Shown here piece after piece: positions 1-36,765 of a stretch of 64,000 nt of DNA. The position numbers were made by a program, and so were the translations under genes. The DNA comes from Rickettsiales bacterium. GTDB lineage: Bacteria; Pseudomonadota; Alphaproteobacteria; Rs-D84. Each line of letters starts with the position of its first letter. Within the stretch, counting starts at the first letter, position 1. The notes below the pieces were generated by a model. The model ran no database searches and was not told the DNA's origin. It saw only the letters and a program-made list of their open reading frames with translations. The DNA is taken from contig JAITCH010000009.1 in the NCBI GenBank assembly GCA_031283185.1, positions 1,190-65,189 on the forward strand. The letters are read 5' to 3'.

Positions 1-3000
1 TCCCATCGCCAGCGCAACGGAATCCGTCTTCGCATTGCACGCATTGCGTTCCGCCCGCCGATACATAGAATGGCGCGGGGCAAACCAGCCAAGTTGATTG
101 ACCCGGTGCGGATTGATAATTTGATCCGCTTGCCGCCGTGCAACCGGACGCGGTCGTTAAATTTGCGCCCGTTCCGATTGTTCCCGCCGGGCATTGTTTG
201 GGCGCAGTTAAATTCGCACCATCGCAATAATTACCCGCCCCGCAGTTGCGGCGTGTGCCGTCTCCGGGACAATAATATCCAACTCCGCAGTCCACAATCG
301 CGCCAGTTATGCCGTCAGTCCAATATCCGGGTGCGACTGCATTCGGCGCACACTGAGATTTCGCAGTTGAACCCGCCGCCGACCAAGTCCCCGCCGGACA
401 TACCGCACAATTCGCCGCCGAAGATGCCGTTGCAGATTCGCCATATCTTCCTGCCGGACATTGTTCGCGTGCCGTGCCGCCCGCGCAATAATACCCTGCC
501 CCGCAAGTTGTAATTTTGCCGTCCGCGCAGACATATCCTGCCGGGCAGTTGTCGGCGCAGTTCGCGCCCCATTTGCCCGCCGGACATTTGGCGCATTCAT
601 CCGCGCTCACCAAACCAATTGCGCCGTTATGATATGTTCCCACCGGGCAGGCGGTCGCAACGCTTGACCCTGCCGGGCAATATCCGCCCGAACACGGCAC
701 GCGATTCACACCCAAAGCGCACATATATCCTGCCGCGCAGACGGACTTTGTGCCATCAGTGCAGTGATTGCCGACTCCGCATTGTGTGGCATTACAGGCC
801 GCGGCATTTGCCGCACCTGCCAACGACCAAGTATTCGCCGGACAATAAGTTGATAATGCGGATCCGGCCGGACAATAATGACCTTCGGGACAATGGACGC
901 GCCGTCCGATGCCCGGGCAGTAATATCCGGCGGTGCAGGCATCCTTTGCAAAATTTTCGCACCAGTTGCCCGCTCCGCAAAGTTCCGCGGTGCAACTCGC
1001 CGCGCCGCTTGCGCCGGGCTCTGACCAAGTCCCCGCCGCGCAAGGTGTTGGCGCGCGCACATTTTCAGGGCAATACGCGCCAGCCGGACAAATTACAGAA
1101 AGTTCATCAACCGGGCAATACCGACCCGCGGCGCAAGGCGATTTTGATCCGCCAGCGCAAAGTTCCGTTTCGCCGCACAGCGCGACCTTGCAGTCGGATG
1201 CGGCGGAAGCATTTTTATAAGACCAGGTTCCGGCAGGACAGGTAGTCGCCGCATCGCTTCCCTCTGGGCAGTAATGACCTGCGGGGCAGTCGACGCGCGT
1301 GCCGTCCCCGGAACATACAAAGCCTGCGGGGCAAATTATTTTTGATCCGTCCGCGCACCAGTTGGCCTTGCCCGCCCATATTGGGTCGGCGTTGCATTCA
1401 AGGACGGAACAGGAACTTTCCCCTGCGATTGACCAGCGACCTTGGGGGCAGTTGCGCTGAACCGAAGACCCTGCCTCGCAGAATTTGCCTGCGGTGCAGT
1501 CGGCCAAAATTCCATTGCCAGCACAGAATTTTCCCGGCGAGCAAGTTTGGCGCACGCCGTTTCCGGGGCACCAGTTTCCGATTCCGCAGATTTCATTGGT
1601 GCACTCCGCCGCGCTTTTCGCGCCCTGTAATGACCAAGTGCCGACCGGGCAGTTTTCTTCGCCCTTACCGGTCTCGCAGAATTTACCCTCTGGACATTCG
1701 GTTTTTACGACCACATCATCCGCGCTTATAATGCAATAGAATCCTGCCGGGCATTCTTGTATTGCCGCATTTGTCCCCTCGCACCATTTGTTGTTCCCGC
1801 AAAGCGCACCAATGCAGTCGGCTTTTTTGACCGAGCCGATTGCCGACCAAGTTCCGTCTGGACAAGAAGTTTTCTTCGCTACGCCCGCCGCGCACCAACT
1901 GCCTGCTGGACAATCTATCTTTGTTCCATTGCCCGCGCAAAATGACCCGGCGGGGCATTCGGATTTAACGCCGTTTTCACACCAGTTGCCTGCGGCACAG
2001 ATTGCGGTTTTGCAGTCGGATGCGAGGGACGCGCCGGGCAAAGACCAAGTTCCGGCTTCGCAGACGGCGGGCGCGGATGATCCGGCCGGGCAGTAATATC
2101 CCGCCGGACATTCGGTAATTTTCCCATCTCCGGCGCAAATGCTGCCCGCGGGGCAAGGCCATTGCACTCCGTCCGCGCACCAGTTCCCTGCGGGACAAGC
2201 GGCGCAGTCTGATGCCTTGGTCGCGCCTGCGGCCTTTGCGGCGACCGCAAATCCGTCAAATGAAACGCTGCCAGCCGCAGACCAAGTTCCGACTGGGCAA
2301 GCGAATGAATCGCGCCCATCGCAATAATATCCTTCGGCGCATTCGCGGATGTTCGCGCCGCCATTCGGGCAAATAAAGCCGGGCGCACATTTGGTGCAGT
2401 CTTCGGATTTGCCGGGGCATTTGCCGGTTATGAAAACTTGATTGCGATATGTGTCGCCGTCTGCCAAGGCGGATACTTCACAGGTCGCGCCCGCCCAATG
2501 TCCAGCAGGACATACGACCTTGCCCACGCCATCCGGGCAGTAAAAGTTCCAACCTGCGTCCCCTTGGCGTTGTTCATTGCACGGACGGCAGACATTGTGG
2601 AAGGTTCGCGCGACAGAATTATCCGCAGGCTTTACATAATAGAATCCCGCGCCGCAGTTAATTATTTTCCCGTCTTCACAATAAGACTCTTCCGGGCAAA
2701 AATTCGGCGCGCAGTCGGATGCGGCGGACGCGCCATTCAAAGACCATTTTCCAACAGGGCAAAGGGTGGGCGCGGATGATCCAGCCGGACAATATGAACC
2801 TGCGGGGCATTCGGTCTTTTTTCCATCTCCGGCGCAAGTGAATCCGCTTGGGCATTGGGCGGCGCAAGCCATTCCCATAAATTCGCTGCGGCGCGGATTG
2901 TATCCCTTGGATTTCATAAACGCGTCCAGTGCGTCAATCAGTGTGTCTTTGGAAACCGACCAAGTCCCCGCCGGACAACTTTCAATACTGCCGGGATCGA

Positions 3001-3694
3001 AACAGAATGAACCTTCGGGACACATCATACATTCGGCGATGGATTGCGCTTTGTTGGTTTCGGTTAGCGTTCCCATCGGACAAGGCGCGCGGGCAGATCC
3101 GCCGATGCAGTAATAACCTTTGCCGCAAGGCGAGCAGGTGCCGTTGTCGAATCCGAATGAAACGCGATTGTATGTGCCGGGCTGACAGCACATTACAGGT
3201 GCGAAGTATAAATTCACATAGTCGTCCATTGATTTCACCGGGACTTTTTTGCCCCAGATTGTGGATGATATTTCGCGGGCGAGTTTCCACATCTCGTTCA
3301 AGTATTCCATATCTTGGGCGACGGTGTCGGTTTGGGGGATAGTGCTGTAAGAATCAAAGCGCGGCAGTTCGTCATTGAAATATGGCGAGCAAGATCCAAG
3401 CATAGCGATGTTGTGTGCATACCAAGAATCGGCGGGTGAAAGGCTGATTGGGATTCCCATATTTTGCGCGTGGCCGATTACGACATCGTAGAGTTTGTCC
3501 TTGGTGTCAGCGATTTTTTGGATTTCTGGTGCGATGTTTTGCGGGTCAAGCGCGGGGTATGACGAGACCGCGATACAGTTAGGTCCTTGGCAGAAAGGTC
3601 TACCTGAAATATCGACGGCTGCTGACGCGTTTAGGGTGCAAAAGCATAAGCCTATAAAGGCTTGAATTTTGATAAAATTCCAAGTCCGAAGCAA
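1..3694 (-). CDS. Very large secreted cysteine-rich repeat protein (GCC2_GCC3 / ephrin-receptor-like CPAGTWS / CPAGxYC repeats), 3' end beyond window
   Basis: Minus-strand frame is open from TTG at 3694 to position 1, which is why the ORF track (which needs a stop) does not list it. A GAGGAAGGA Shine-Dalgarno lies 7 nt upstream. The N-terminus reads LLRTWNFIKIQAFIGLCFCTLNASAAVD, a signal peptide with AXA cleavage. A unique domain of about 150 aa follows, then dozens of tandem CxxC...CPAG(T/S)WS / CPAGYYC units seen as the DNA repeat gaccaagtccccgccgg. All plus-strand ORFs here are shadows of this gene. Confidence 0.6.
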   Translation of the reverse strand, partial: MLRTWNFIKIQAFIGLCFCTLNASAAVDISGRPFCQGPNCIAVSSYPALDPQNIAPEIQKIADTKDKLYDVVIGHAQNMGIPISLSPADSWYAHNIAMLGSCSPYFNDELPRFDSYSTIPQTDTVAQDMEYLNEMWKLAREISSTIWGKKVPVKSMDDYVNLYFAPVMCCQPGTYNRVSFGFDNGTCSPCGKGYYCIGGSARAPCPMGTLTETNKAQSIAECMMCPEGSFCFDPGSIESCPAGTWSVSKDTLIDALDAFMKSKGYNPRRSEFMGMACAAQCPSGFTCAGDGKKTECPAGSYCPAGSSAPTLCPVGKWSLNGASAASDCAPNFCPEESYCEDGKIINCGAGFYYVKPADNSVARTFHNVCRPCNEQRQGDAGWNFYCPDGVGKVVCPAGHWAGATCEVSALADGDTYRNQVFITGKCPGKSEDCTKCAPGFICPNGGANIRECAEGYYCDGRDSFACPVGTWSAAGSVSFDGFAVAAKAAGATKASDCAACPAGNWCADGVQWPCPAGSICAGDGKITECPAGYYCPAGSSAPAVCEAGTWSLPGASLASDCKTAICAAGNWCENGVKSECPAGSFCAGNGTKIDCPAGSWCAAGVAKKTSCPDGTWSAIGSVKKADCIGALCGNNKWCEGTNAAIQECPAGFYCIISADDVVVKTECPEGKFCETGKGEENCPVGTWSLQGAKSAAECTNEICGIGNWCPGNGVRQTCSPGKFCAGNGILADCTAGKFCEAGSSVQRNCPQGRWSIAGESSCSVLECNADPIWAGKANWCADGSKIICPAGFVCSGDGTRVDCPAGHYCPEGSDAATTCPAGTWSYKNASAASDCKVALCGETELCAGGSKSPCAAGRYCPVDELSVICPAGAYCPENVRAPTPCAAGTWSEPGASGAASCTAELCGAGNWCENFAKDACTAGYYCPGIGRRVHCPEGHYCPAGSALSTYCPANTWSLAGAANAAACNATQCGVGNHCTDGTKSVCAAGYMCALGVNRVPCSGGYCPAGSSVATACPVGTYHNGAIGLVSADECAKCPAGKWGANCADNCPAGYVCADGKITTCGAGYYCAGGTAREQCPAGRYGESATASSAANCAVCPAGTWSAAGSTAKSQCAPNAVAPGYWTDGITGAIVDCGVGYYCPGDGTRRNCGAGNYCDGANLTAPKQCPAGTIGTGANLTTASGCTAASGSNYQSAPGQSTWLVCPAPFYVSAGGTQCVQCEDGFRCAGDG

Positions 3695-3875
3695 TTGATT
3701 TCCTTCCTCTGCCAACAAGTCTAGCAAATCAAACCAAGGTCAATCAAGTGAGTTTTATTGCCTAAATATTATTTTGAAACGTTATATGCAGAACTTAAAA
3801 ATTCAAATAATAAAATAATTTTGATTTGCTTTTACATACAGGACAATATAATATAAATATGGAGGAAAGCCAAAT

Positions 3876-4859
3876 ATGATGCGTTCCATAGAAATATGTG
3901 CAGGTGCTGGTGGTCAGGCTATTGGACTTGAACAAGCAGGTTTTTCACATACCGCACTTATAGAGATTGAAAAACTAGCATGCGATACCTTACGCACAAA
4001 TCGTCCAAATTGGAATATAATTGAAACAGATTTGCATAATTGGTCAGCCAAACAATATGAGGGTATTGACCTGTTCGCAGGTGGCATTCCATGTCCACCA
4101 TTTTCTGTCGCAGGAAAACAGTTAGGAAAAGATGACCCCCGGGATCTTTTTCCAACCGCATTACGGCTTATATCCGAATGCGATCCAAAGTCCATCTTGC
4201 TTGAAAATGTAAAAGGGCTTTTTAGTTCCAAATTTGACGAATATCGTGAACACATAAAATCACAACTAGAATCCATGGGGTATGTTTGCTTTTGGAATTT
4301 GATAAATTCCTGTAATTATGGTTTGCCTCAGTTGCGTCCGAGAACAATTCTAATCGCATTAAAAAAAGAATATGCTCAACATTTTAGATGGCCATTGGGC
4401 ATCATCGCCCCACCTCCAACCATAGGTGATTTATTAAAGGAAGAGCTCGCTTCCAATGGCTGGCTTGGCGCGGAAGAATGGGCAAAAAAGGCGGATTGGA
4501 TTGCCCCTACATTAGTCGGTGGAAGCAAAAAACATGGTGGTGCCGATCTAGGGCCAACTCGCGCCAAAGAAGCATGGGCAAAGCTTGGAATAGATGGTTG
4601 TGGGTTGGCGGATAAAGCGCCGGAAAAAAATTTTGTGGGAATACCACGGCTTACCATACAAATGGCGGCTTTGGTGCAAGGATTTCCGAAATGTTGGCAA
4701 TTTTCAGGCAAAAAAACACCTGCATACAGACAAATAGGCAACGCTTTTCCTCCACCCGTTGCAAAAGCAATGGGCAAAGCGATAATGAGGGCTTTGATAG
4801 CCGGAGAAGAAATAAAAGAAGGTGAAGAATATGGTAAAAAACTTAGGCTCGCGAGCTAA
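3876..4859 (+). CDS. DNA cytosine-5 methyltransferase (Dcm family)
   Basis: Motif I EICAGAGG, motif IV PCPPFS, motif VI ENVKGL, motif X QIGNAFPP. AT-rich context. Confidence 0.85.
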   Translation: MMRSIEICAGAGGQAIGLEQAGFSHTALIEIEKLACDTLRTNRPNWNIIETDLHNWSAKQYEGIDLFAGGIPCPPFSVAGKQLGKDDPRDLFPTALRLISECDPKSILLENVKGLFSSKFDEYREHIKSQLESMGYVCFWNLINSCNYGLPQLRPRTILIALKKEYAQHFRWPLGIIAPPPTIGDLLKEELASNGWLGAEEWAKKADWIAPTLVGGSKKHGGADLGPTRAKEAWAKLGIDGCGLADKAPEKNFVGIPRLTIQMAALVQGFPKCWQFSGKKTPAYRQIGNAFPPPVAKAMGKAIMRALIAGEEIKEGEEYGKKLRLAS

Positions 4860-5394
4860 ACTGCGTCAATATTTATTTGATAATATAGGAAAAGTGTTGT
4901 CTTCCAATGAACTGCGTGAAGTGGCTGGGACTTCAGAATGGGGGCAGCGTGTCCGTGAATTACGCGATGAAGAAGGTCTACAAATCTTAACACACAATGA
5001 CAGATCCACATTAAAACCCGGTCAATATATTTTGGAAACAGAGAAACCAAAACCTGCATTCGCTCGTGAAATCAGCAAAGAAACCCGCGCATATGTCTTG
5101 GATCGGAATGGCTTTACTTGTCAAATGTGCGGTGCTGTTGCCGGGGAGCCACACCCTTATGATACCACCAAGAAAACACGCCTTCATATTGGACACATAA
5201 TAGATAAAAGCATGGGTGGCACAGATGATTATTCTAATTTGCGCGCAATTTGTAGTATATGTAATGAAGGGGCATCAAATATCACACTTGAACGACCATC
5301 TTATGAAAAATTATTAATACAAATTCGTCGTGCCAATGGCGGAGATCAAAAGAAAATCTTAGAATGGCTAAAAAATAAGTTTCAAGATTTCTAA
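4822..5394 (+). CDS. HNH endonuclease (candidate restriction or nicking partner of the methyltransferase)
   Basis: CQMCG...HIGHIID...NLRAICSICN bba-Me/HNH signature. Overlaps the methyltransferase 3' end by 38 nt (translational coupling). Confidence 0.65.
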   Translation: MKNMVKNLGSRAKLRQYLFDNIGKVLSSNELREVAGTSEWGQRVRELRDEEGLQILTHNDRSTLKPGQYILETEKPKPAFAREISKETRAYVLDRNGFTCQMCGAVAGEPHPYDTTKKTRLHIGHIIDKSMGGTDDYSNLRAICSICNEGASNITLERPSYEKLLIQIRRANGGDQKKILEWLKNKFQDF

Positions 5395-5509
5395 GATTAA
5401 AAAGGATTTTCCATGGAAACTAAGGGCAATGCTTTTATAGCATTTATAAATCTTAAAAACTATGATTTTAAACCATATAGTTTTTAAGGAATAAAAAAGA
5501 TTTGAAATT

Positions 5510-5902
5510 ATGAGCACAAAATTTATCGAATATAAAAATTTTATAAAGATTTCAGCGCATCTTGTGAACCACGGATATATAACCCACTGGAATCGGGTTG
5601 ATGATAATGGGGCCGATTTTATTTGTATCCACAACAGGACTTGCGCCATATTCAAGATTCAGTTGAAGTCACGAATCACCGTGGATCCCAAAAAATATGC
5701 AGGCAAGAATATATTTATGGCATTTCCTAAAAGAGAAAAATTCCCCAATAAGGATTGGGTAATTGTCAAACATGATGCATTGTTAAAAATTTATCATAAT
5801 ATGATCACACCTAATAAAATCAGAAGTTCACCCAATGTTCCGAACAAAGATTGGAACGCCATAAAGAAAATATCTATTATTCCACCATTTGATTTTTCTT
5901 AA
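5510..5902 (+). CDS. Hypothetical protein, possible small PD-(D/E)xK-like nuclease
   Basis: 130 aa, AT-rich island. Weak D...QxK pattern (GADFICIH...AIFKIQLK). No confident homology from sequence alone. Confidence 0.35.
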   Translation: MSTKFIEYKNFIKISAHLVNHGYITHWNRVDDNGADFICIHNRTCAIFKIQLKSRITVDPKKYAGKNIFMAFPKREKFPNKDWVIVKHDALLKIYHNMITPNKIRSSPNVPNKDWNAIKKISIIPPFDFS

Positions 5903-5918
5903 AAAGTAATTCGATCGT

Positions 5919-6446
5919 CTAAATCTCTGAGTCTGGATTGATTTTAATGGCATAGCGGTTCAGAACATTGAAAAACTTCTGCTCGCTCTTTTCATCCCTA
6001 AATCCCATCAGCATATTTCCGTATTTTTCACGCGCCCGTTTAATGCGCCACTCCGCCAATCGCTTTATCCCGAATTTATAATCTTTGACCTTATAAACAT
6101 CCACGATTTTGGATAAGTCTTCCAAATGGAATGTAATTTTATTTATAACTTTCACAGGCGCGTTATTGCGATAATGGCATTCGTTATCTTCGCCGCAGAA
6201 ATACCAGTTGTCATTGTTTTCCAGTTCATAAACTTCGCCGTTGATTTCCGAAGAAAAAACATAAAGCGGCCTATGCCCAAAGGTATCTATTAGGGCGACT
6301 TTGGGCAAAGTCCTGGCCTTAATATACATTGGCTGTCGAATTTTAATCGAAGCATTAACATCTTCGTGCGTCTTAAATTGCGGGATGAGTTCATCGCCGA
6401 CTTCCAACTTTTCTTGCGTTCCGTGAAAAAATCTTAAATTTTCCAT
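5919..6446 (-). CDS. Hypothetical protein (island cargo)
   Basis: 175 aa ORF convergent with the island genes. AT-rich codon usage. R...SS...ExE-like residue order noted but unproven. Confidence 0.4.
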   Translation of the reverse strand: MENLRFFHGTQEKLEVGDELIPQFKTHEDVNASIKIRQPMYIKARTLPKVALIDTFGHRPLYVFSSEINGEVYELENNDNWYFCGEDNECHYRNNAPVKVINKITFHLEDLSKIVDVYKVKDYKFGIKRLAEWRIKRAREKYGNMLMGFRDEKSEQKFFNVLNRYAIKINPDSEI

Positions 6447-6488
6447 AAAATGATTATATCACAAACCCGGAAATTTTTCTATTTATAG

Positions 6489-7478
6489 TTATCTTGTTTT
6501 CGCCAAATACCATTTGATTGTTTTGACGATCCCGGTATCAAAATTTTCTTTTGCGCGCCAGCTCAATTCCTTTTCCAACTTGGTCGCATCAATCGCGTAT
6601 CTGCGGTCGTGTCCTAATCTATCCGCGACAAATGAAATCTGATTTTTATATGAAACGCCATCCGCTCGCGGCTGTTCCCTATCTAGAAGTCCGCATATAG
6701 TATTCACAATCTGCAAATTATTCCGCTCATTTCGTCCGCCGACATTATAAACCTCGCCAGCAACTCCGTTATGATAAATCAAGTCAATCGCCTTGCAGTG
6801 GTCGGCGACATAAAGCCAGTCGCGCACATTTTTCCCATCGCCATAAATCGGAATTGGTTCGCCCGCCAACGCCTTGCGGATTATGGTTGGGATTAGTTTC
6901 TCCGCGTGTTGTTTCGGTCCATAATTATTGGAACAATTTGAAGTCGTTATATTCATTCCATATGTATGGAATGCGGCGCGAACTATGTGGTCGCTTGCGG
7001 CCTTAGATGCGGAATAAGGGCTGTTCGGTGCGTATGGCGTGGCTTCGGTGAAAAGTCCAGTTTCCCCCAAAGATCCATAAACTTCATCAGTTGATATATG
7101 ATGGAATCGCGGCGTTTTATCTTCGCCCCAGTGCGCCCTCGCGGCCTCTATTAAATTCGCTGTTCCGATGACATTGGTTTCATAAAATCCCAGCGGCGTT
7201 TTAATGGATCTATCAACATGACTTTCTGCTGCGAAGTGAATCACCCCTTGAATATTATAATGTTCAAAGTGGGTTTGAAGCATCCCAAAATGGCAAATGT
7301 CGCCCAACACGAATTGATAATTTGGAACGCCGTCCATTTCGGCGAGATTGCTTTTATCGCTGCCCTGCACCATAGAATCCAAACAAATGATTTTGTATTT
7401 CGGATGTTTTTTTGCGAAGTAAGGAATGAAGTTAGAACCGATAAATCCCGCGCCGCCGGTTATAAGAATTGGTTTCAT
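6489..7478 (-). CDS. rmlB: dTDP-glucose 4,6-dehydratase
   Basis: ILITGGAGFIGSNF Rossmann motif and the YxxxK catalytic region. ATG at 7478 overlaps the rmlD stop (ATGA); the track ORF extends to 7499. Confidence 0.9.
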   Translation of the reverse strand: MKPILITGGAGFIGSNFIPYFAKKHPKYKIICLDSMVQGSDKSNLAEMDGVPNYQFVLGDICHFGMLQTHFEHYNIQGVIHFAAESHVDRSIKTPLGFYETNVIGTANLIEAARAHWGEDKTPRFHHISTDEVYGSLGETGLFTEATPYAPNSPYSASKAASDHIVRAAFHTYGMNITTSNCSNNYGPKQHAEKLIPTIIRKALAGEPIPIYGDGKNVRDWLYVADHCKAIDLIYHNGVAGEVYNVGGRNERNNLQIVNTICGLLDREQPRADGVSYKNQISFVADRLGHDRRYAIDATKLEKELSWRAKENFDTGIVKTIKWYLAKTR

Positions 7479-8305
7479 CGCACTAACTCCTTTATGCATT
7501 CTTTAAGGCTGACGCGCCATTCTGGAATTTCTATGCCTAGGGTCTTTATGATTTTGGATTTGTCCAGGACGGAGTATTCCGGGCGTTTTGCCTTGGTCGG
7601 ATATTGGGCGGTGGTTATGGGATTGACATTGCAGTTCAGTCCAGATAATTTCATAATGTTTTTTGCAAATTCATACCAACTTACATAGCCTTCGTTTGTG
7701 TAGTGAAAGATCTCCTTGAACCCGCCATTGACCATTGGCGCGATTTTAAGAATTACATCAGACAGGTCGCGTGCATTTGTCGGCGTTCCGTGCTGATCGT
7801 AGACAACATTTATTTCATCTTTTTGCGAACCGAGTTTCAGCATTGTCTTAACAAAGTTATTTCCATAAGGACTGTAAAGCCAAGCCGTCCGAATGATCGC
7901 GGCGGATTCGGCATTTTCCATCACGGCAAGTTCACCCGCAAGTTTTGTCGCGCCATATACGGATTGCGGATTGCAGTTTGATGTTTCCGAATATAGAGAA
8001 TTTGCAAGCCCGTCGAATACATAATCTGTGGAAAGGTGAATGATGTTCCGTCCGTATTTTGCAAGATTACCCGCGCCGATATGGTTGACGGCGTTGGCGA
8101 TTTCTGGTTCGTCTTCGGCCTTGTCGACTGCGGTGTAAGCGGCGCAGTTGACGACGCAGTCATATTTGTCGGACTTGAAAAAATCCGCGACTGCTTTTTC
8201 GTTTGTTATGTCCAGTTCGTCCATATCAACATAGCGGGCTGTGTCGCCCAAAATGTCTTCCAAACAAGTTCCAAGTTGTCCGCGTGCACCTGTGATTAAA
8301 AGCAT
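7475..8305 (-). CDS. rmlD: dTDP-4-dehydrorhamnose reductase
   Basis: MLLITGARGQLG..., typical RmlD length and motifs. Confidence 0.85.
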   Translation of the reverse strand: MLLITGARGQLGTCLEDILGDTARYVDMDELDITNEKAVADFFKSDKYDCVVNCAAYTAVDKAEDEPEIANAVNHIGAGNLAKYGRNIIHLSTDYVFDGLANSLYSETSNCNPQSVYGATKLAGELAVMENAESAAIIRTAWLYSPYGNNFVKTMLKLGSQKDEINVVYDQHGTPTNARDLSDVILKIAPMVNGGFKEIFHYTNEGYVSWYEFAKNIMKLSGLNCNVNPITTAQYPTKAKRPEYSVLDKSKIIKTLGIEIPEWRVSLKECIKELVR

Positions 8306-8844
8306 CTTCCTAACTCCTTTAATAATGGATGGCGTTTGTCTTTTTCAGATAGAATTTCTTCGCCGGCCGGGATTTGCCAGTCAATGCCCAAAGCGGGATC
8401 GTTGTAAATCAAGCCGCCGTCAGCGGAAGGATCGTAAAAGTTGTCGCACTTGTATGCGAAGACTGCGGACGCGGAAAGGACGGCGAATCCGTGCGCGAAC
8501 CCGCGCGGAATCATCAACATACAATTATTTTCACCAGTTAGTTTTGCGGATATGTGCCGTCCGTATGTTGGAGATCCGGGGCGGAGGTCAACCGCAACAT
8601 CCAGGACAGAGCCTTCCAAACAGCGCACAAGTTTTGCCTGGGCGGACGCGCCGCGTTGAAAATGCAAACCGCGGATTGTGCCGTAATAGGATTGCGATTG
8701 GTTGTCTTGGACAAAGTTGTATTTCAAGCCTGCGTTTTCAAATGTTTTTTGATTGTATGTTTCGACGAAGTATCCGCGGACATCTGCGAAGACGCGCGGC
8801 TTTATCAAGATTACACCATCTATTTTAGTTGGTTCAAATTGCAT
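8296..8844 (-). CDS. rmlC: dTDP-4-dehydrorhamnose 3,5-epimerase
   Basis: 182 aa cupin. FVQDNQS...RGLHFQ motif. Confidence 0.85.
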   Translation of the reverse strand: MQFEPTKIDGVILIKPRVFADVRGYFVETYNQKTFENAGLKYNFVQDNQSQSYYGTIRGLHFQRGASAQAKLVRCLEGSVLDVAVDLRPGSPTYGRHISAKLTGENNCMLMIPRGFAHGFAVLSASAVFAYKCDNFYDPSADGGLIYNDPALGIDWQIPAGEEILSEKDKRHPLLKELGRCF

Positions 8845-9718
8845 TTTGATGATCCTTTAATACTTTGCGGAGATAGTCGGCGTATCCGCCGCGCTTGAAC
8901 TTTGCGATTTGCAATTCCATTCCGCATTCGTTGATGAATCCTTTTTCAAGAGCGATTTCTTCGGGACAGGATATTTTTATTCCGCGGGTTTCTTCAATCG
9001 CGCCTATAAAATTTGATGCCAGCATCAGACTTTTTTCCGTGCCTGCGTCAAGCCAAGTCGCGCCATATCCCAAATCCATAGTTTTTAAGCGACCTTCGGC
9101 GAGATATAAATTTGACAGGTCGGTTATTTCATATTCTCCGCGTGCGGATTTTTTAACCTTTTTTGCATATTGTGCGACATCGCCTGGATAACAATAAAGT
9201 CCGATTGCGGCGAAATTTGATTTTGGTTTTGCGGGCTTTTCTTCAATAGAAATTACATTTTTTTGTTTATCAAATTCCACGATACCAAATCGTTGCGGGT
9301 CGCTGACCTTGTATGTAAAAATGGTTGCATGGTTTGGGGTTGCTGAGAGTTTTTTTCCAGTATCGCTAAGGTATCCTGTATGAATTATATTGTCGCCCAA
9401 AATCATTGCAGTCTGTTCGCCGTTTATAAAGTCTTCACCAATAACGAATGCTTGGGCGATACCTTCGGGTTCTGGTTGCTGTGCATATTCAATATGGATA
9501 CCCCATTGCGATCCATCGTGAAGAAGATCGCGGAACATTGGGATGTCGCGCGGAGTTGAAATCAGTAATATATCGCGGATACCGAACATCATTAATGTTG
9601 ATAAAGGGTAATAGATCATCGGCTTGTCATAGACCGGCAGCATCTGTTTAGAGATGGAAAATGTCATAGGGTGAAGACGCGTGTTTAGGCCACCGGCAAG
9701 AATTATGCCCTTATTCAT
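8834..9718 (-). CDS. rmlA: Glucose-1-phosphate thymidylyltransferase
   Basis: MNKGIILAGGLNTRLHPMT... G-x-G-T-R-L signature. Confidence 0.9.
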   Translation of the reverse strand: MNKGIILAGGLNTRLHPMTFSISKQMLPVYDKPMIYYPLSTLMMFGIRDILLISTPRDIPMFRDLLHDGSQWGIHIEYAQQPEPEGIAQAFVIGEDFINGEQTAMILGDNIIHTGYLSDTGKKLSATPNHATIFTYKVSDPQRFGIVEFDKQKNVISIEEKPAKPKSNFAAIGLYCYPGDVAQYAKKVKKSARGEYEITDLSNLYLAEGRLKTMDLGYGATWLDAGTEKSLMLASNFIGAIEETRGIKISCPEEIALEKGFINECGMELQIAKFKRGGYADYLRKVLKDHQNAI

Positions 9719-9796
9719 TTTTACCTCGTATTTGATTCTTATCAGGATTTTACAACAAAGAATTAATTTGTCAACAGGTAATTTCGCAAATTAATT

Positions 9797-10615
9797 CTAA
9801 AACATATCAATGTGTGGACGCGAGCCATCAATTAAATAAGCGGCGGGCTGATTTGCATCCCAATCAATGCCAGTCTTTTTTACTGACGCGGGATTGCCAG
9901 CAATAAGGCAATTTGGCTCTATAAATTTTTTCGTAACTACTGAACGCACTGGAACGATGCAATGATCCGGAATGCCTGCCTTGGCAGTAAGAATCACATC
10001 GTGCCCGATCCATACATGGTTTCCAACGGATACGGGTTCTGTCGGCACATTAATGCATTCCCTAGTTTTTGCATCCAATACTGCGTGTCCATCGCAAAGT
10101 ATAAATACTTGCGCCAACATTAAATCATTTCCGATTTTTATTTGATTTCCACAGGACAGGACATTAAGTTTCGAGCCTGCTCCATTTTCCCCTACGATAA
10201 AACGATTGTTATCATAGAAAAGATCCAAATGCGCGTATTTCATATGAAAGTTTCTGCCTAATTCCACATAGTTATTGCAACCGCCATAATTGAACTTAAC
10301 ATTTATATTTCCGTGGCAGGGAAGATGAATGACTATTTTATTGTTTTTGTAAATGCTTCTATCTTTGGTATAGACATTATCAAAACCTACATTCAAAGAA
10401 AAGTTTCGGACTAATTCGCGGTATTTTTTCGATAGAACCATCGCCGGCGACATTATAAATTCGTGCGAATTACCCGACTCGTCAATTATTATAACAACAT
10501 TATCATTGTTGTGGGGGGGGGCGGACAATTGACCTCTAAGACTTCTCCGCATGCGTTTTGATGGAATGAACAGACACACTAATTTAATAAAGGTTTTGCG
10601 TTTGATTCTAAACAT
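9797..10615 (-). CDS. Sugar O-acetyltransferase (left-handed beta-helix, hexapeptide repeats) with 5' poly-C tract
   Basis: C-terminal hexapeptide-repeat region (VWIGHDVILTAKAGIPDHCIV...). A C9 tract encodes APPH at codons 31-34. Confidence 0.7.
   Translation of the reverse strand: MFRIKRKTFIKLVCLFIPSKRMRRSLRGQLSAPPHNNDNVVIIIDESGNSHEFIMSPAMVLSKKYRELVRNFSLNVGFDNVYTKDRSIYKNNKIVIHLPCHGNINVKFNYGGCNNYVELGRNFHMKYAHLDLFYDNNRFIVGENGAGSKLNVLSCGNQIKIGNDLMLAQVFILCDGHAVLDAKTRECINVPTEPVSVGNHVWIGHDVILTAKAGIPDHCIVPVRSVVTKKFIEPNCLIAGNPASVKKTGIDWDANQPAAYLIDGSRPHIDMF
10513..10521. repeat. Homopolymeric G9 (C9 on coding strand) inside the acetyltransferase CDS
   Basis: gtgggggggggcgg read directly. In-frame at this length. 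Confidence 0.9.
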
Positions 10616-10623
10616 TTGCAGTC

Positions 10624-11760
10624 CTATTCGATTTCACAATTCAAAGTCAATTCATGGACTGGGAACCAACCATAATTTGAATCCGTAAGGCTAAATTTAT
10701 ACCCCAAACCAAGCGAATCAATCATTGGCAGAATGTGCATCAGGTCATCATAATTATGATAAATGCTTAAAATTAATGTCGGTTTTTGTTCGCGTATAGT
10801 TTGCAGCGCACCTTTAAGGAAAAGTTGTTCTGCCCCTTCAATATCGACCTTTATCAAACCAACCTTGATTTTGTTTTCTTTAACATAATTATCCAAAGTT
10901 TCCATCTTGCATTTCAATTGTCCCGGCGCATCGAACGCCGCGCAATCCATATAACCCGTGCTGTCCGAAAAACCGACATTAATTGGAACAATGTTTTTTG
11001 CATTATTAAGCGCAATGTTGCGTTTCATTTCTTCAAAATTTCCCGTCAATACTTCCGCTGCATAAATTGGATTATTAGAGAAATGTCTAGCGAATATAAG
11101 TGCAGAATCCCCAACATAAGCCCCCACATCAAAAATCGCAAGACCTTCTTTTATAATTCTATCTTTTGACTTTAATCCATCCAATCCGTATTCATCAACA
11201 AATATGGATGGCTCAAAAGTATTTTTATATAGCTTATATCCATTCAATTCAAAATATTTTCCATTCATATCAGTCGCTTTCATGGAATGCATTTTTTCAA
11301 ACTTCTTTATTTGTGTTTCATCATAAAAAATACACCACGGCGCGCAATTTGGTTTTTGATTTATCGGACGAGCTCCATTAACAAGCAAATTATTCGCCTT
11401 AACTAATCTGTAAAGATTGCAGTCAAAAATTTCTTTGCTTTGTTTATCCAATCCATTCAACATAGTTTTAGCGTCCGAATCAAATTGTTGTTGAGATATG
11501 CCAAGCAAACTTGGTAAAAATCCGAAACTAACAAAGTTGATCTTGCCTGCTGCATCATATAGTTCAGGCGATATGCTGGCATATTGTATTTTCACAACAA
11601 TAGAGAGAGGGGGGGGGGTGAATTTGCGCTTGATTATCCGTATACCGAACAAATATGTCCGCGAAACAGAATTGCTGCGTTTTTTGCTTAAAATTGGCAG
11701 ACCGAAAAAGAAGTATTTTTTATCGCCATTTGGGTATCTTTTTTTGCCTAAAACTTTCAT
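10624..11760 (-). CDS. FkbM-family methyltransferase (glycan modification) with internal poly-C tract
   Basis: C-terminal FkbM domain (FDVGAYVGDSA...IKVDIEGAE). The N-terminal part contains a C10 tract encoding TPPP. Confidence 0.65.
   Translation of the reverse strand: MKVLGKKRYPNGDKKYFFFGLPILSKKRSNSVSRTYLFGIRIIKRKFTPPPLSIVVKIQYASISPELYDAAGKINFVSFGFLPSLLGISQQQFDSDAKTMLNGLDKQSKEIFDCNLYRLVKANNLLVNGARPINQKPNCAPWCIFYDETQIKKFEKMHSMKATDMNGKYFELNGYKLYKNTFEPSIFVDEYGLDGLKSKDRIIKEGLAIFDVGAYVGDSALIFARHFSNNPIYAAEVLTGNFEEMKRNIALNNAKNIVPINVGFSDSTGYMDCAAFDAPGQLKCKMETLDNYVKENKIKVGLIKVDIEGAEQLFLKGALQTIREQKPTLILSIYHNYDDLMHILPMIDSLGLGYKFSLTDSNYGWFPVHELTLNCEIE
11609..11618. repeat. Homopolymeric G10 (C10 on coding strand) inside the FkbM methyltransferase CDS
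   Basis: gagagaggggggggggtg read directly. ORF is open at this length. Confidence 0.9.
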
Positions 11761-12792
11761 TTACAAAGTTCCCTTTTTCGCGCGGGCCAGGTCGGCATCC
11801 ATCATCATTTTCGCCAGTTCGGCGAATTTGACTTTTGGCGACCAGCCTAATATATCCTTGCCCTTGGCTGAATTGCCCAGCAGTTGTTCAACTTCGGCGG
11901 GACGATAAAATTTAGGATTGACCTTGACGACGACGCGCCCGGAATTTTTATCTGTTCCGATTTCGTTTTCGGCTTCGCCGCTGAATTCAATGTCCCACCC
12001 CAGTGCCTTGCCGGCTTCGGATATAAATTCGCGGATGGAATGCATTTCATTTGTAGAAATGACATAAGTATCGCCGTGTTCGTGTTGCAGCATCCGCCAC
12101 ATAAATTCAACATAGTCGCCTGCGAATCCCCAATCGCGTTTTGCGTTCAGGTTGCCCAATTCAACAGGTTTGTCCGTTTCGCCGACGGCGATGCGTGCGA
12201 AATGCTGGGTAATTTTGCGCGTAACGAATTCCTTGCCGCGGAAAGGGGATTCGTGATTGAATAGAATGCCTGAACAGGTGAAAACGCCAAAACTCTCGCG
12301 GTAATTGGTTGCCGCCCAGTGCGCCATAAGTTTTGCCACGCCATAGGGCGAACGCGGCCAAAATGGAGTTTTTTCAGTCTGCGGCACTTCTTGCACCTTG
12401 CCGAACATTTCGGATGTGGACGCTTGATAAAACCGGGTCTTCGGACTGAACTGGCGAATGGCTTCCAAGATATAAAGAACGCCCATACCATCGGCTTGGG
12501 CGGTATAAATTGGTTCTTCAAACGAAGCGGCGACAAATGATTGCGCGGCCAAGTTATAAAATTCATCCGGCTGATATTTTATAAGCAAACGGCAAATGTT
12601 GGTAAATTCAAGCAGGTCAAAATCCACCATTTCGATTTGGTCAAGTATTCCGTGTTCTTTAAGTTTTTCGAATGTATCGGTCGCGCCACGGCGGAATGCG
12701 CCGATGACCTTGTAGCCCTTGGACAGAAGAAGTTTTGCAAGGTATCCTCCATCTTGACCTGTTATCCCAGAAATGATTGCTGTTTTCGCCAT
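11761..12792 (-). CDS. gmd: GDP-mannose 4,6-dehydratase
   Basis: MAKTAIISGITGQDGGYLAKLLL... Start trimmed to the internal ATG (track ORF begins at 12858). Confidence 0.85.
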   Translation of the reverse strand: MAKTAIISGITGQDGGYLAKLLLSKGYKVIGAFRRGATDTFEKLKEHGILDQIEMVDFDLLEFTNICRLLIKYQPDEFYNLAAQSFVAASFEEPIYTAQADGMGVLYILEAIRQFSPKTRFYQASTSEMFGKVQEVPQTEKTPFWPRSPYGVAKLMAHWAATNYRESFGVFTCSGILFNHESPFRGKEFVTRKITQHFARIAVGETDKPVELGNLNAKRDWGFAGDYVEFMWRMLQHEHGDTYVISTNEMHSIREFISEAGKALGWDIEFSGEAENEIGTDKNSGRVVVKVNPKFYRPAEVEQLLGNSAKGKDILGWSPKVKFAELAKMMMDADLARAKKGTL

Positions 12793-12899
12793 ATTTATCC
12801 TCATATCTAAAAATGCTTTATTATTACATAATTTTAATTTAATAACGCACAAAGTCAATCACTTTATAGAGAAATCCGTGAATAGATCATTCATCACGC

Positions 12900-13739
12900 T
12901 TAAAACGCATATTGTTTTGACTTAAATCGTTCCAGCGCATCGTCTAAATTCTCTTGATCATCGTCCCAATATAATCCCCAATCGATCAGGGTTAACTTGC
13001 CATAGCCCGCATCCATCAACGGATCGGTAGGTAGATCCGAAGAAATCCAACGCCCCTGTCCAGAATTCGGCGTGCCGTATTTCTGTAAAACCATTTGCCA
13101 GAATGCGAGAACTTTTTTATCGCGCTGATTGGTGAATTTTTCAGCATCGCCTGGAATGTCGTCCACATCATTGGTGTAGATTATTTTCCAAACAAGATTA
13201 TCGGTTGCATTTGATGTAAAATGCACACTGATTTTTTCACCAGTTGACGGGCGTTCCAGCCGCATTTCCGAAGGGTATAAAAATCCCCGTTTGCGCGCGG
13301 CGGAATTGATGCACTTTTCCAATTGCGCGGGCGCATTGATTTTTTGTTGCCTGCATTCATAGTCCAGGTTGGACTTCCATTCTTTTGGTATGGTGTATGT
13401 TATAGCATTGCGGGTAGCGGGGCGATAAATGGCGGCCTCGCGGAAGAACAGAATACGAACGGATTCGAACGGCATACCCAGCATTATGCTGGAAATATCA
13501 AAGTCGTGAACATTGGCAAAGGATTCGCCGGCGTTAAGTGCGAGGGTTTCACCCAGCATTTCAAAGTCGATATTTTCGGATGATGAAGTAATATCTCCTT
13601 CAAGGTATTCGCCGCCTGCATCTGCGCCAATGTCGAAGCCGCTGTCGAAAAATTCATCTTCTGCCCGCGACAGAAATGGCACGATGCATAAGGCGAATAT
13701 GATTATAAAAATTTTCCTACTCTTCCACATAATTTTCAT
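12900..13739 (-). CDS. Secreted hypothetical protein
   Basis: Signal peptide MKIMWKSRKIFIIIFALCIVPFLSRA. The track ORF is extended upstream through a palindromic repeat array, so the start is trimmed to the signal-peptide Met. Confidence 0.5.
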   Translation of the reverse strand: MKIMWKSRKIFIIIFALCIVPFLSRAEDEFFDSGFDIGADAGGEYLEGDITSSSENIDFEMLGETLALNAGESFANVHDFDISSIMLGMPFESVRILFFREAAIYRPATRNAITYTIPKEWKSNLDYECRQQKINAPAQLEKCINSAARKRGFLYPSEMRLERPSTGEKISVHFTSNATDNLVWKIIYTNDVDDIPGDAEKFTNQRDKKVLAFWQMVLQKYGTPNSGQGRWISSDLPTDPLMDAGYGKLTLIDWGLYWDDDQENLDDALERFKSKQYAF

Positions 13740-13772
13740 TCTAGTAAATATCTTACCCCTTACGCAAACGAA

Positions 13773-14070
13773 AAATTCCCCCTCTGCTTGATGTGGTCGC
13801 ACAATAGTCCCCTTCGCTGGCGAAGGGGTGGATGCCGAAGGCAGACGGGGTAGTGGTAATAATTGCCTCGCCCGGCTTTGCCGGGAGAGGAACGAAGCCC
13901 GGCAACTTGTTGCCGTAGGCTGAGTGGTGAGGGCAAGCGCAAAAGCCCTCACCGGATTTTCTAAATTCGCCTTGCTCATTAATAAAATCCTCCTCTCCCA
14001 CCTTCGGCGGGCAAGGCTATTATTAACACCCACCCCCATACCCCACCTCATCCTCCACACCCCCACCCCA
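13773..14070. repeat. Array of nested palindromic (RPE/REP-like) elements
   Basis: Units such as gtccccttcgctggcgaaggggtg...cggggtagtggt and gcctcgcccggctttgccgggagagg, shared with more than 20 other loci in the window. Confidence 0.8.
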
Positions 14071-14117: not shown

Positions 14118-15008
14118 ATGATTATCCCGAAAACCGCCTTAAAACATATATATATTCAAGCCGCCTGGTGGCTCGCTTGGGCGATTTTCTGCACAATTTT
14201 CCTAGGAATTGCCTTCAAATTCAACATATTTTCCGCCCGCCATTGGGCAATCGTTAGCAAATATGGATTTCACGGATTTCGCGGCACGGCATTATTAATC
14301 AGCATTGCCGCCGCCCTGCCGGTTGGCGCGGCACTCGCCGTTTTGTTCTGGCGGCAAGGTGGTTTCAAAAAGCCTCCGAAAAAGCCCGAAACCCCTGCAA
14401 ACGCGCATTCGGACTTTGCAGAAATTGCTGAAATCATAGAGACAAAAAAGGATCTGCCGGAAGAACTTCGTAATGCTTATGTCCGAATGAGGCGCGATGC
14501 ACATCCTGCGAAAAACCAGATGCCCGCGCCGATGCAGCAGAAATCAAAACCGAAAGCCGATGATTTGTTTGCGATGGACGATTTTGACCCTGCGCCAAAT
14601 GCCGCGCCCAACAACGCGCCCGCGCCGAACACCCAGGCTCCGACCTTTGAGAGCCTAGATTTCAAGCCGCTTGAATTCGGCAAAAACAAAAAAGATAAAG
14701 ACGAAGGGGAATCCAAACTTTTCCTGCGCGAGACGAATGACACGATCCGCATTATTGCGAAACACGATGATGAAGGGTCTTGGTTTGCGGATGAAAAGGA
14801 GCAACCCGGGCAAACTCCGCAGTGGTTTTCCGAAGGCGGGCAAAAGACTTCGCCGGTGTATTTGGCATTGCAAAAGGCGGCGGATTTGCGCGCGACCAAC
14901 CCGGATAAGAAAGTAGTTGCTGTTCTAAAATTGTATAAAGATAATATAATTAATAAGGCAGCTATGCTGCCGATCTGGACCGAACTGGGCATTGTTGTAG
15001 AAGATTAA
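14118..15008 (+). CDS. Membrane protein with proline-rich disordered linker
   Basis: Two N-terminal TM helices, then a PKKPETPANA...APNNAPAPN low-complexity segment. Confidence 0.5.
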   Translation: MIIPKTALKHIYIQAAWWLAWAIFCTIFLGIAFKFNIFSARHWAIVSKYGFHGFRGTALLISIAAALPVGAALAVLFWRQGGFKKPPKKPETPANAHSDFAEIAEIIETKKDLPEELRNAYVRMRRDAHPAKNQMPAPMQQKSKPKADDLFAMDDFDPAPNAAPNNAPAPNTQAPTFESLDFKPLEFGKNKKDKDEGESKLFLRETNDTIRIIAKHDDEGSWFADEKEQPGQTPQWFSEGGQKTSPVYLALQKAADLRATNPDKKVVAVLKLYKDNIINKAAMLPIWTELGIVVED

Positions 15009-16566: not shown

Positions 16567-17469
16567 ATGTTCCGCAAGGTCGCATTCTTGGCAATCATTT
16601 TATCTGCATCAGTTTTTGCAAGCTCGTCTTTCGCCGCCTGCACTGACGCCACATCCTGTAAATCCGAGGCACAAACAGCATATAATGCCGCCGCAGAAAA
16701 ACTCGCCGAAGCAAAGAAAAAACTTGAATCCGCTCAACGCACGCAGCAAGCACTTGGCGTTGCCGCAATGGGTATCGGCGGTATGCAACTTGCACAGGGT
16801 CTTGCCCAAAACGCGGCGGAAGAAGAAGGCAAAAAACGGCTTGAAGATTACCAGAAAACCTGGATGTGCGGCGTTGGATCTGCATCTGCCACAGACGAAG
16901 GCCGCATCAACTGGTTCGGCGCAACCGTCGGCGCAGGTCAGGTCGGAACGGTGCCCGCGCCCAAAGGATTGCCGCGCTTAATAGCCGACTTTACCGCCAA
17001 ACAAAATCAGATAAAGGCCGCAAAGGGCGAAATGGATATGGTCTTGACCGAAGAAGAACAAATGACATTCGCCGCTAACAATTTATACGGCCGCGATGAC
17101 GGATTGGCAGAAGGCGAACTTGCCACACAATCCACAGGCGGCGGAAATACGCGTATCGCAATCGGCGCAGGCTTGGCGGGCGCGGGCGCAATGCTGTCAA
17201 TGGGCGATGGTTCGTCCGGTGTATATAAAAATGCGCTGGGGGCTGGCTTGATTACAGGCGGCGGCGCGGGCGCGCTGGTTGCCAAGGATACGAAAGGCCA
17301 GGTTATAGGCGGACTGACGGCAGTCGGCGGAGCAGGCGTTCTGACAAATGGATTTGGATTAATAGGGGCTGGAAAAAAAGATGAGGACGGCAATAAATTG
17401 GGTGTTCTCGGAAATATGGGTAGCGGTCTCAGCGATGTCGCAAAGAATTTAGGAATCGTCGGGAAGTAA
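16567..17469 (+). CDS. Secreted glycine-rich protein
   Basis: Signal peptide, then GAGLAGAGAMLSMGDG...GGGAGALVA Gly-rich repeats. Confidence 0.55.
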   Translation: MFRKVAFLAIILSASVFASSSFAACTDATSCKSEAQTAYNAAAEKLAEAKKKLESAQRTQQALGVAAMGIGGMQLAQGLAQNAAEEEGKKRLEDYQKTWMCGVGSASATDEGRINWFGATVGAGQVGTVPAPKGLPRLIADFTAKQNQIKAAKGEMDMVLTEEEQMTFAANNLYGRDDGLAEGELATQSTGGGNTRIAIGAGLAGAGAMLSMGDGSSGVYKNALGAGLITGGGAGALVAKDTKGQVIGGLTAVGGAGVLTNGFGLIGAGKKDEDGNKLGVLGNMGSGLSDVAKNLGIVGK

Positions 17470-36578: not shown

Positions 36579-36765
36579 ATCCCCCCACTTCCCCGTCATC
36601 CCGGCGAAGGCCGGGATATTTGTATAATGCAAAATAAATTCCCCGCCAATGGTGGCGGGGTGGCGGTGATGTCCCCGCACTTTCCCCTTTACAACTCATA
36701 TCAAAGTGCTATAATACGACAACTTTCCGGGATTTGCGCCCGGAATGACATATTAAAGGAACAAA

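Follow-up and report, generated by a model that had tools for sequence, protein, structure and literature searches.

In a 64,000-nt stretch of DNA from an uncultured alphaproteobacterium labelled Rickettsiales (metagenome-assembled genome (MAG) GCA_031283185.1, contig JAITCH010000009.1, positions 1,190 to 65,189; hereafter the window), we found that two adjacent genes predicted to decorate a surface glycan carry uninterrupted runs of ten and nine cytosines in their 5' coding segments. The first gene encodes an FkbM-family S-adenosylmethionine (SAM)-dependent methyltransferase and the second a putative left-handed beta-helix (LbH) O-acetyltransferase. A preliminary description of this DNA had proposed that the runs are slipped-strand on/off switches, and our analysis likewise leads us to conclude that the two tracts are probably simple-sequence contingency switches that confer phase variation. 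This conclusion is supported by the rarity of such runs, their intragenic position, the truncation of the products upon slippage and the recurrence of equivalent runs in homologous genes, features from which we infer the switching itself.

On the plus strand the tracts appear as G9 at 10513-10521 and G10 at 11609-11618, that is, as C9 and C10 on the coding (minus) strand of the acetyltransferase (9797..10615, 272 amino acids (aa)) and methyltransferase (10624..11760, 378 aa) genes, respectively, and these coordinates and lengths agree with those reported in the preliminary description. The C9 tract spans nucleotides 95-103 of the coding sequence (gCC CCC CCC Cac, encoding A-P-P-H), which places it at codons 32-35 and corrects by one the earlier assignment to codons 31-34, while the C10 tract spans nucleotides 143-152 (codons 48-51; aCC CCC CCC CCt, encoding T-P-P-P). 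As had also been noted, both tracts are in frame within the 272-aa and 378-aa open reading frames (ORFs), such that both genes are ON in the sequenced consensus.

To judge how unusual these tracts are, we scanned the window for G/C runs and found that they are the only two of nine or more nucleotides, with an expectation of ~0.3 for the 64-kb window and of ~0.003 for the two tract-bearing genes. The next-longest run is a C8 at 35588 that lies inside a repeat element (see below), and runs of six to seven are depleted ~9-fold across the window (two of length 6 versus ~15 extrapolated and none of length 7 versus ~3.6 extrapolated), indicating that selection acts against such runs elsewhere in the window. 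The same scan bore out the earlier statement that gmd and rmlABCD, the remaining sugar-nucleotide genes of the cluster, are free of such tracts, with no G/C run of six or more in rmlA-rmlC-rmlD-rmlB (6489-9718). The other ORFs of the window use mixed codons at Pro-Pro(-Pro) sites, the one exception being a CCC CCC pair contributed by the repeat element in a radical-SAM ORF (35190-36578). The C9 and C10 tracts are not explained by chance. Both also attain the G/C length of 7-8 associated with frequent slippage: the PhasomeIt cut-off is seven or more G/C, and in Campylobacter jejuni NCTC 11168 all poly-G/C tracts of eight or more vary (PMC6321876).

These figures bear directly on the alternative that the tracts are incidental proline-coding homopolymers that arose by drift in permissive linkers, the two genes being low in GC and horizontally acquired, and that mutate too rarely, or without selection, to operate as switches, with loss-of-function slips being purged. 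Such drift would be compatible with both genes being in frame in the only population seen, with the location of the tracts in disordered linkers whose sequence is free to drift, and with the GC content of the two genes (36-38% versus 44-50% for neighbour genes), owing to which they may be recent imports. It does not readily account, however, for two runs of at least nine in adjacent genes where ~0.003 are expected and where runs of six to seven are depleted, nor for the avoidance of CCC CCC at the other Pro-Pro sites, nor for the independent recurrence of equivalent runs in the same 5' segment of both enzyme families, with OFF and polymorphic examples nearby (see below), and we regard it as unlikely.

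Both tracts lie inside the frame, and a one-unit change truncates the product. In homologues sharing 25-48% identity, the N-terminal peptide that precedes each tract is conserved, and both tracts must therefore be translated. In the methyltransferase, the N-terminus MKVLGKKRYPNGDKKYFFFGLPIL is conserved in the homologous proteins P0002, P0005, P0006, P0012 and P0014, and 15 homologues of the acetyltransferase, with identities of 25-46%, share its leader motif (F.KL.CLFIPSK..R..LR, residues 6-31). Conservation of residues 6-31 also led us to reject the possibility that the C9 tract lies upstream of the acetyltransferase start, as implied by the JGI/IMG call of a 218-aa protein beginning at M55. 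Judged by this conservation the JGI/IMG start is a mis-start, and the homopolymer probably misleads start-site prediction in that annotation.

Both tracts follow directly after these N-terminal leaders, in gap-rich alignment columns of low predicted local distance difference test score (pLDDT). In the AlphaFold model of the acetyltransferase, C9 falls just after the predicted N-terminal helices (pLDDT ~55 at residues 31-40), and C10 falls within residues 27-80 of the methyltransferase, where the pLDDT is below 50. From alignments and models, both tracts thus appear to encode a flexible linker between leader and catalytic domain, in which an in-frame proline run would be harmless. When we simulated slippage of C9 to 7, 8, 10 or 11 nt, the acetyltransferase product was cut to 36-42 aa, and changing C10 to 8, 9, 11 or 12 nt left 55-65 aa of the methyltransferase. 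No Shine-Dalgarno-like context was seen at the first in-frame restart codons of the two genes.

Both enzyme assignments made previously, an FkbM-type methyltransferase and a hexapeptide O-acetyltransferase, held up. The methyltransferase (MDR2685475.1 at NCBI) matches PF05050 with 38.7 bits (cut-off 22.7) and TIGR01444 with 78.1 bits (cut-off 37.7), both above the curated cut-offs. A search with the methyltransferase family profile retrieved PDB entry 2py6 ('Methyltransferase FkbM', E 3e-10), and the structural model contains a confident Rossmann domain (pLDDT >90). It is the position of the gene between gmd and rmlACDB that suggests O-methylation of a sugar acceptor.

The acetyltransferase is annotated by NCBI as 'hypothetical protein' (MDR2685474.1, LBB23_01720) and has no Pfam match, Hexapep included, so that NCBIfam and PDB were used to place it in a family. 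Both NCBI entries belong to a MAG contig of 194,574 bp. The NCBIfam models for maltose O-acetyltransferase (MAT), WbbJ and WcaF match with E values of 1e-11 to 1e-12 without reaching their equivalog cut-offs, and the protein is therefore not an orthologue of any named enzyme. Among solved structures it matches OatWY (2wlc, E 7e-15), NeuO (3jqy, E 8e-14) and MAT (3srt, E 1e-9), and by sequence its closest solved relatives are the polysialic-acid O-acetyltransferases OatWY and NeuO. H177, W202 and M166 align to H121, W145 and M108 of OatWY, corresponding to the His, Trp and Met named as catalytic or active-site residues of OatWY/NeuO in the NeuO structure paper (PMC3046976), and W252 aligns to OatWY W195. 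H177 and W202 are invariant among 16 acetyltransferase homologues, and the AlphaFold model (mean pLDDT 66) exhibits a repeated short-strand pattern. These matches identify the protein as a predicted sugar O-acetyltransferase of the LbH family, in the NeuO/OatWY/MAT branch.

Are such tracts a constitutive property of these proteins or acquired elements? The nearest homologues, P0002 (44% identity, 'MLVPA') and P0125 (48%, 'LTGGFKK'), have no run at the homologous site, although at this distance they do not count as relatives with interrupted tracts. Given that the closest homologues lack the run and that CCC CCC is avoided at other Pro-Pro sites, we regard the runs as lineage-specific, recent gains and not as a requirement of the protein. 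Among the homologues retrieved, we then looked for GGG or PPP motifs near the N-terminus and fetched the DNA for six proteins. All six, picked by the N-terminal GGG motif, harbour a G run of at least nine in the 5' segment of the gene. Among the FkbM homologues, the gene for P0078 has a G17 at nucleotides 141-157, the same 5' position as the C10 in the window (locus L013, 4141-4157; ENA contig ERZ27258104, 353 kb), the gene for P0053 a G9 at nucleotides 150-158 (L015) and that for P0114, from human gut, a G10 at nucleotides 190-199 (L016). In the fourth (P0109), a G6TG10 (L014, 4003-4019) is located at the junction with an upstream glycosyltransferase family 8 (GT8) gene, where G8 or G11 would fuse the GT8 and FkbM ORFs into ~650 aa, and this run may toggle between separate and fused GT8/FkbM enzymes. 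Two acetyltransferase homologues also carry a G9, at nucleotides 84-92 of the gene for P0249 (present in three samples, L019, L020 and L021) and at nucleotides 3-11 of the gene for P0235 (L017/L018). Since the runs in the homologues encode glycine and those in the window proline, they arose independently.

Two of these loci also provide examples of an apparent OFF state and of length polymorphism. In L013, a neighbouring glycosyltransferase family 2 (GT2) gene is split at a C11 (5962-5972) into fragments of 116 aa and 190 aa that cover PF00535 positions 2-49 and 59-166, and C10 or C13 would restore a product of 314-315 aa; as read from the sequence, this is a textbook phase-OFF state. Along the 4,923 nt that L019 and L020 share, these contigs from two separate samples show 100% identity, and yet a poly-C close to the 3' end of a WavE-family lipopolysaccharide (LPS) gene is of unequal length, with C14 in L019 (5903-5916) versus at least C18 in L020 (4910-4927). 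The L020 contig ends inside this run, and the longer allele could therefore have arisen during assembly.

The homologues are informative for a further alternative, in which the tracts act at the level of RNA or translation, with RNA-polymerase slippage or ribosomal stalling or frameshifting on CCC-CCC-CCC tuning the amount of enzyme without any heritable switch. Long homopolymers can cause transcriptional slippage, consecutive prolines slow translation, and the tracts do encode PP and PPP. The homologues, however, use glycine-encoding poly-G at the same place, so that proline stalling is not the common denominator, the split GT2 gene of L013 represents a DNA-level frameshift in such a locus, and transcriptional slippage is best documented for A/T runs. 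We consider an effect confined to RNA or translation improbable, and more so than incidental drift.

It is possible, if somewhat doubtful, that the leader-plus-linker region of both enzyme families is a recurrent landing site for homopolymer switches. The families concerned are a NeuO-like LbH clade, whose leader reads F.KL.CLFIP.K..R..LR, and an FkbM clade, whose leader is a beta-hairpin. The occurrences comprise the poly-C tracts in the window and poly-G tracts in six or more unrelated lineages from gut or associated with termites.

Other repeat differences were encountered in the contigs retrieved. The contig with the closest methyltransferase homologue (L005, MAG GCA_009782315.1) encodes a second FkbM protein of 276 aa with an in-frame G11 (813-823, codons 124-128), whose N-terminus (MRKLFVNIVCLFIPNQRLRRELR) is the leader motif of the window acetyltransferase family. 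Just upstream of this gene (L005 412-417), the ENA and NCBI versions of the contig (L005 and L006) differ by A6/A5. L019 and L021 show an A6/A7 difference at L019 position 264. In L003 (7781-9007), a gene for LarC-type nickel insertion (PF01969) is broken into ORFs of 278 aa and 128 aa that cover profile positions 1-254 and 260-374, with an A17 run ~60 nt into the second ORF; this case is unrelated to the tracts described here.

As the window derives from a MAG and homopolymers are error-prone on some platforms, the tract lengths themselves could be assembly or sequencing artefacts, in which case the true runs would be shorter or interrupted, or the genes would be frameshifted pseudogenes; the two assemblies of the related MAG contig that differ by A5/A6 at one site (L005 versus L006) illustrate such uncertainty. 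We found that the Logan k-mer assembly of SRR14710906, probably built from the same read set as the MAG contig, is 100% identical to the window base for base over 13.2 kb (624-13825), both run lengths included, and this agreement disfavours an assembler artefact. Moreover, both long ORFs are kept, and the parts up- and downstream of each run match homologues, which would be unlikely with wrong lengths. An artefact is thus very improbable, the least probable of the alternatives that we consider.

Several points nevertheless count against phase variation of the two genes. Exact-protein look-ups with the methyltransferase, the acetyltransferase, RmlA and Gmd led to a single sample (SRR14710906), no related loci were found in a search of metagenome contigs, and a search of genome contigs returned relatives of 36-44% identity and no close one. 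The ON state of both genes in the consensus is also expected of a gene that does not switch. Because the homologues were picked by motif, they give a biased estimate of frequency, with tracts in at least 5 of the ~121 listed FkbM matches, and the contig-end position of the longer L020 allele weakens the polymorphic example. How often a tract switches depends on the polymerase and on mismatch repair, and among the lengths that switch fast in repair-proficient species C9 and C10 are on the short side.

On balance we favour slipped-strand phase variation, which could operate as follows. The C9 and C10 runs would mispair during replication (slipped-strand misalignment) and gain or lose one base, shifting the frame after codon 35 of the acetyltransferase gene or codon 51 of the methyltransferase gene, so that a stub of 36-65 aa without the catalytic domain would be made (OFF), until a second slip restored the frame (ON). 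Acting independently, the two switches would generate up to four surface-glycan states in a clonal population (with or without the methyl group, and with or without the O-acetyl group). The target would be an LPS or capsule-like polysaccharide containing 6-deoxyhexose (rhamnose and/or a GDP-mannose-derived sugar), and a mixture of glycan states may hedge against phage, antibody/lectin or host recognition. That length varies at a useful rate in the host organism, the sugar that is modified and the selective agent are all inferred.

The poly-G/C contingency genes for capsule, lipooligosaccharide (LOS) and flagellar glycans in Campylobacter, where SAM-dependent methyltransferases are listed among the putative phase-variable genes, are similar in that they combine intragenic G/C homopolymers of 8-11 nt with surface-glycan modification genes (PMC6321876). 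As in the window, a 1-nt change loses the frame, several independent switches occur per glycan locus and the lengths of the window tracts are within the variable range. Unlike in Campylobacter, a pathogen of the Campylobacterota in which switching has been demonstrated, the window genes belong to an uncultured alphaproteobacterial MAG that is not a known pathogen, their products are at most distant relatives of the Campylobacter enzymes and their switching is putative.

A second parallel is provided by NeuO of the E. coli K1 prophage CUS-3 (PDB 3jqy), a phase-variable polysialic-acid O-acetyltransferase in which a 5' repeat switches O-acetylation of the capsule. The NeuO repeat is a heptanucleotide variable-number tandem repeat (AAGACTC, 2-93 copies) that starts 2 nt after the start codon and whose copy number also tunes catalytic efficiency (PMC3046976). 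The window acetyltransferase belongs to the same LbH branch, aligning to NeuO over residues 90-265 with the catalytic His/Trp/Met conserved, and in both proteins the switch would reside in the 5' coding region, within a disordered N-terminal extension upstream of the catalytic domain, with a truncated peptide as OFF state. The two differ in that NeuO has a heptanucleotide repeat near the start, whereas in the window gene a single-nucleotide repeat, C9, occupies codons 32-35 and follows a helical leader that is conserved. Polysialic acid is also an unlikely acceptor for the window enzyme, as no sialic-acid genes were seen and its neighbours are rml and gmd. OatWY, the capsule O-acetyltransferase of Neisseria meningitidis serogroups W and Y, is the best PDB sequence match of the window enzyme, but the alignment covers only ~100 residues, the N-terminal leaders differ and no homopolymer switch in oatWY is described in the literature examined.

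Homopolymer switching is also known for the LOS/LPS glycosyltransferase genes lgtA/C/G in Neisseria and for the fucosyltransferase genes futA/B (poly-C) in Helicobacter pylori. There, 5' poly-G/C tracts yield combinatorial surface-glycan variation as proposed here; those glycosyltransferases, however, change the sugar backbone, whereas the window methyltransferase and acetyltransferase would add non-sugar decorations. Literature searches combining FkbM, phase-variable and homopolymeric returned nothing, and a full-text search found no report of homopolymer phase variation in Rickettsiales. A homopolymer switch of meningococcal oatC was not borne out by the texts examined and is not used here as a precedent.

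The two tract-bearing genes are embedded in a cluster for nucleotide-sugar synthesis on the minus strand. Upstream is gmd (11761..12792, 343 aa), encoding GDP-mannose 4,6-dehydratase (PF16363, E 1.7e-124), preceded by a promoter-like site at 12858-12831 on the minus strand (10/12 consensus matches). The gmd stop codon abuts the methyltransferase start codon (gap of 0 nt), and gmd is therefore probably the first gene of a gmd-methyltransferase-acetyltransferase unit in which the methyltransferase and acetyltransferase genes are separated by 8 nt. Downstream of the acetyltransferase gene, Pfam identifies the dTDP-L-rhamnose pathway genes rmlA (8834-9718), rmlC (8296-8844), rmlD (7475-8305) and rmlB (6489-7499), all on the minus strand. 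The acetyltransferase stop and the rmlA start are 78 nt apart, and the intervening DNA harbours a minus-strand promoter-like site (9747..9774, TTGACA-16-TAAAAT, 11/12 matches), which, judging by its match to the consensus, may shield the rml genes from polarity. In our promoter and terminator scan the site counts in this region were not above those of shuffled sequences, and operon boundaries are tentative.

Since gmd, methyltransferase and acetyltransferase genes are tightly packed, an early stop in the methyltransferase gene could lower expression of the downstream acetyltransferase gene by polarity. This qualifies the earlier suggestion of a variable decoration on a constant backbone. Within ~10 kb of the tract genes we recognised gmd, rmlABCD, two GT2 genes and msbA. 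No wzx, wzy, wzm, wzt or kps gene was recognised in this neighbourhood, in which the ORFs at 12900-14066, 14118-15008 and 16567-17469 have no family match, and the target may thus be either LPS or capsule.

Further features flank the glycan cluster. In a low-GC stretch next to it, the overlapping genes for a C-5 cytosine DNA methylase (3876-4859, PF00145) and an HNH endonuclease (4822-5394) likely form a restriction-modification pair (3876-5394). Directly downstream of rmlB, a 175-aa ORF on the minus strand (5919-6446) scores just below threshold against the rifampin ADP-ribosyltransferase family PF12120 (24.1 versus 25 bits). The beginning of the window (1-3694, minus strand) is occupied by the 3' part (1,231 codons) of a gene with a predicted product of 1,662 aa and no Pfam match. 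Its GC content is ~59% (versus 47% for the window and 36-38% for the tract genes), and the composition boundary near 3,000-3,700 is sharp.

The C8 run mentioned above belongs to a palindrome-containing element of ~65 nt that occurs twice in frame in the 462-aa ORF at 35190-36578, which encodes a radical-SAM/UPF0004 (MiaB/MtaB-like) protein. Copies of the element (...AAATC(6-8)AAAATAATAAAGTCATCCCGGGGCTTGACCCCGGGATCTCGCCGAAT) are found at 35575-35650 and 36113-36185, the two in-frame copies having C8 and C6, with a partial copy just after the stop codon (36581-36620) and the core at 58862-58887. The element resembles the in-frame Rickettsia palindromic elements. We considered C8 (35588-35595) as a third switch and rejected it, as it is part of this repeated palindromic element inserted in the radical-SAM gene.

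If the C9 and C10 tracts do switch, one genotype of an uncultured bacterium would give rise to up to four versions of its surface polysaccharide, and recognition by phages, hosts or antibodies would be affected. The tracts also affect how the annotation of such MAGs is to be read, as the acetyltransferase start was wrongly placed downstream of the tract in one annotation, while a second annotation named the protein hypothetical. While the slipped-strand principle is textbook knowledge, what is added here is that putative homopolymer switches recur at the 5' end of genes of two enzyme families in various uncultured bacteria, among them a MAG labelled Rickettsiales. Since homologues from human gut and other metagenomes also carry G/C runs in the 5' segment, phase variation of glycan methylation and acetylation by homopolymers may reach well beyond the classical pathogens. 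Should the leader-plus-linker region indeed prove to be a recurrent landing site for such runs, combinatorial glycan decoration driven by simple sequence repeats would be widespread in uncultured commensals and symbionts, a Rickettsiales-labelled lineage included.

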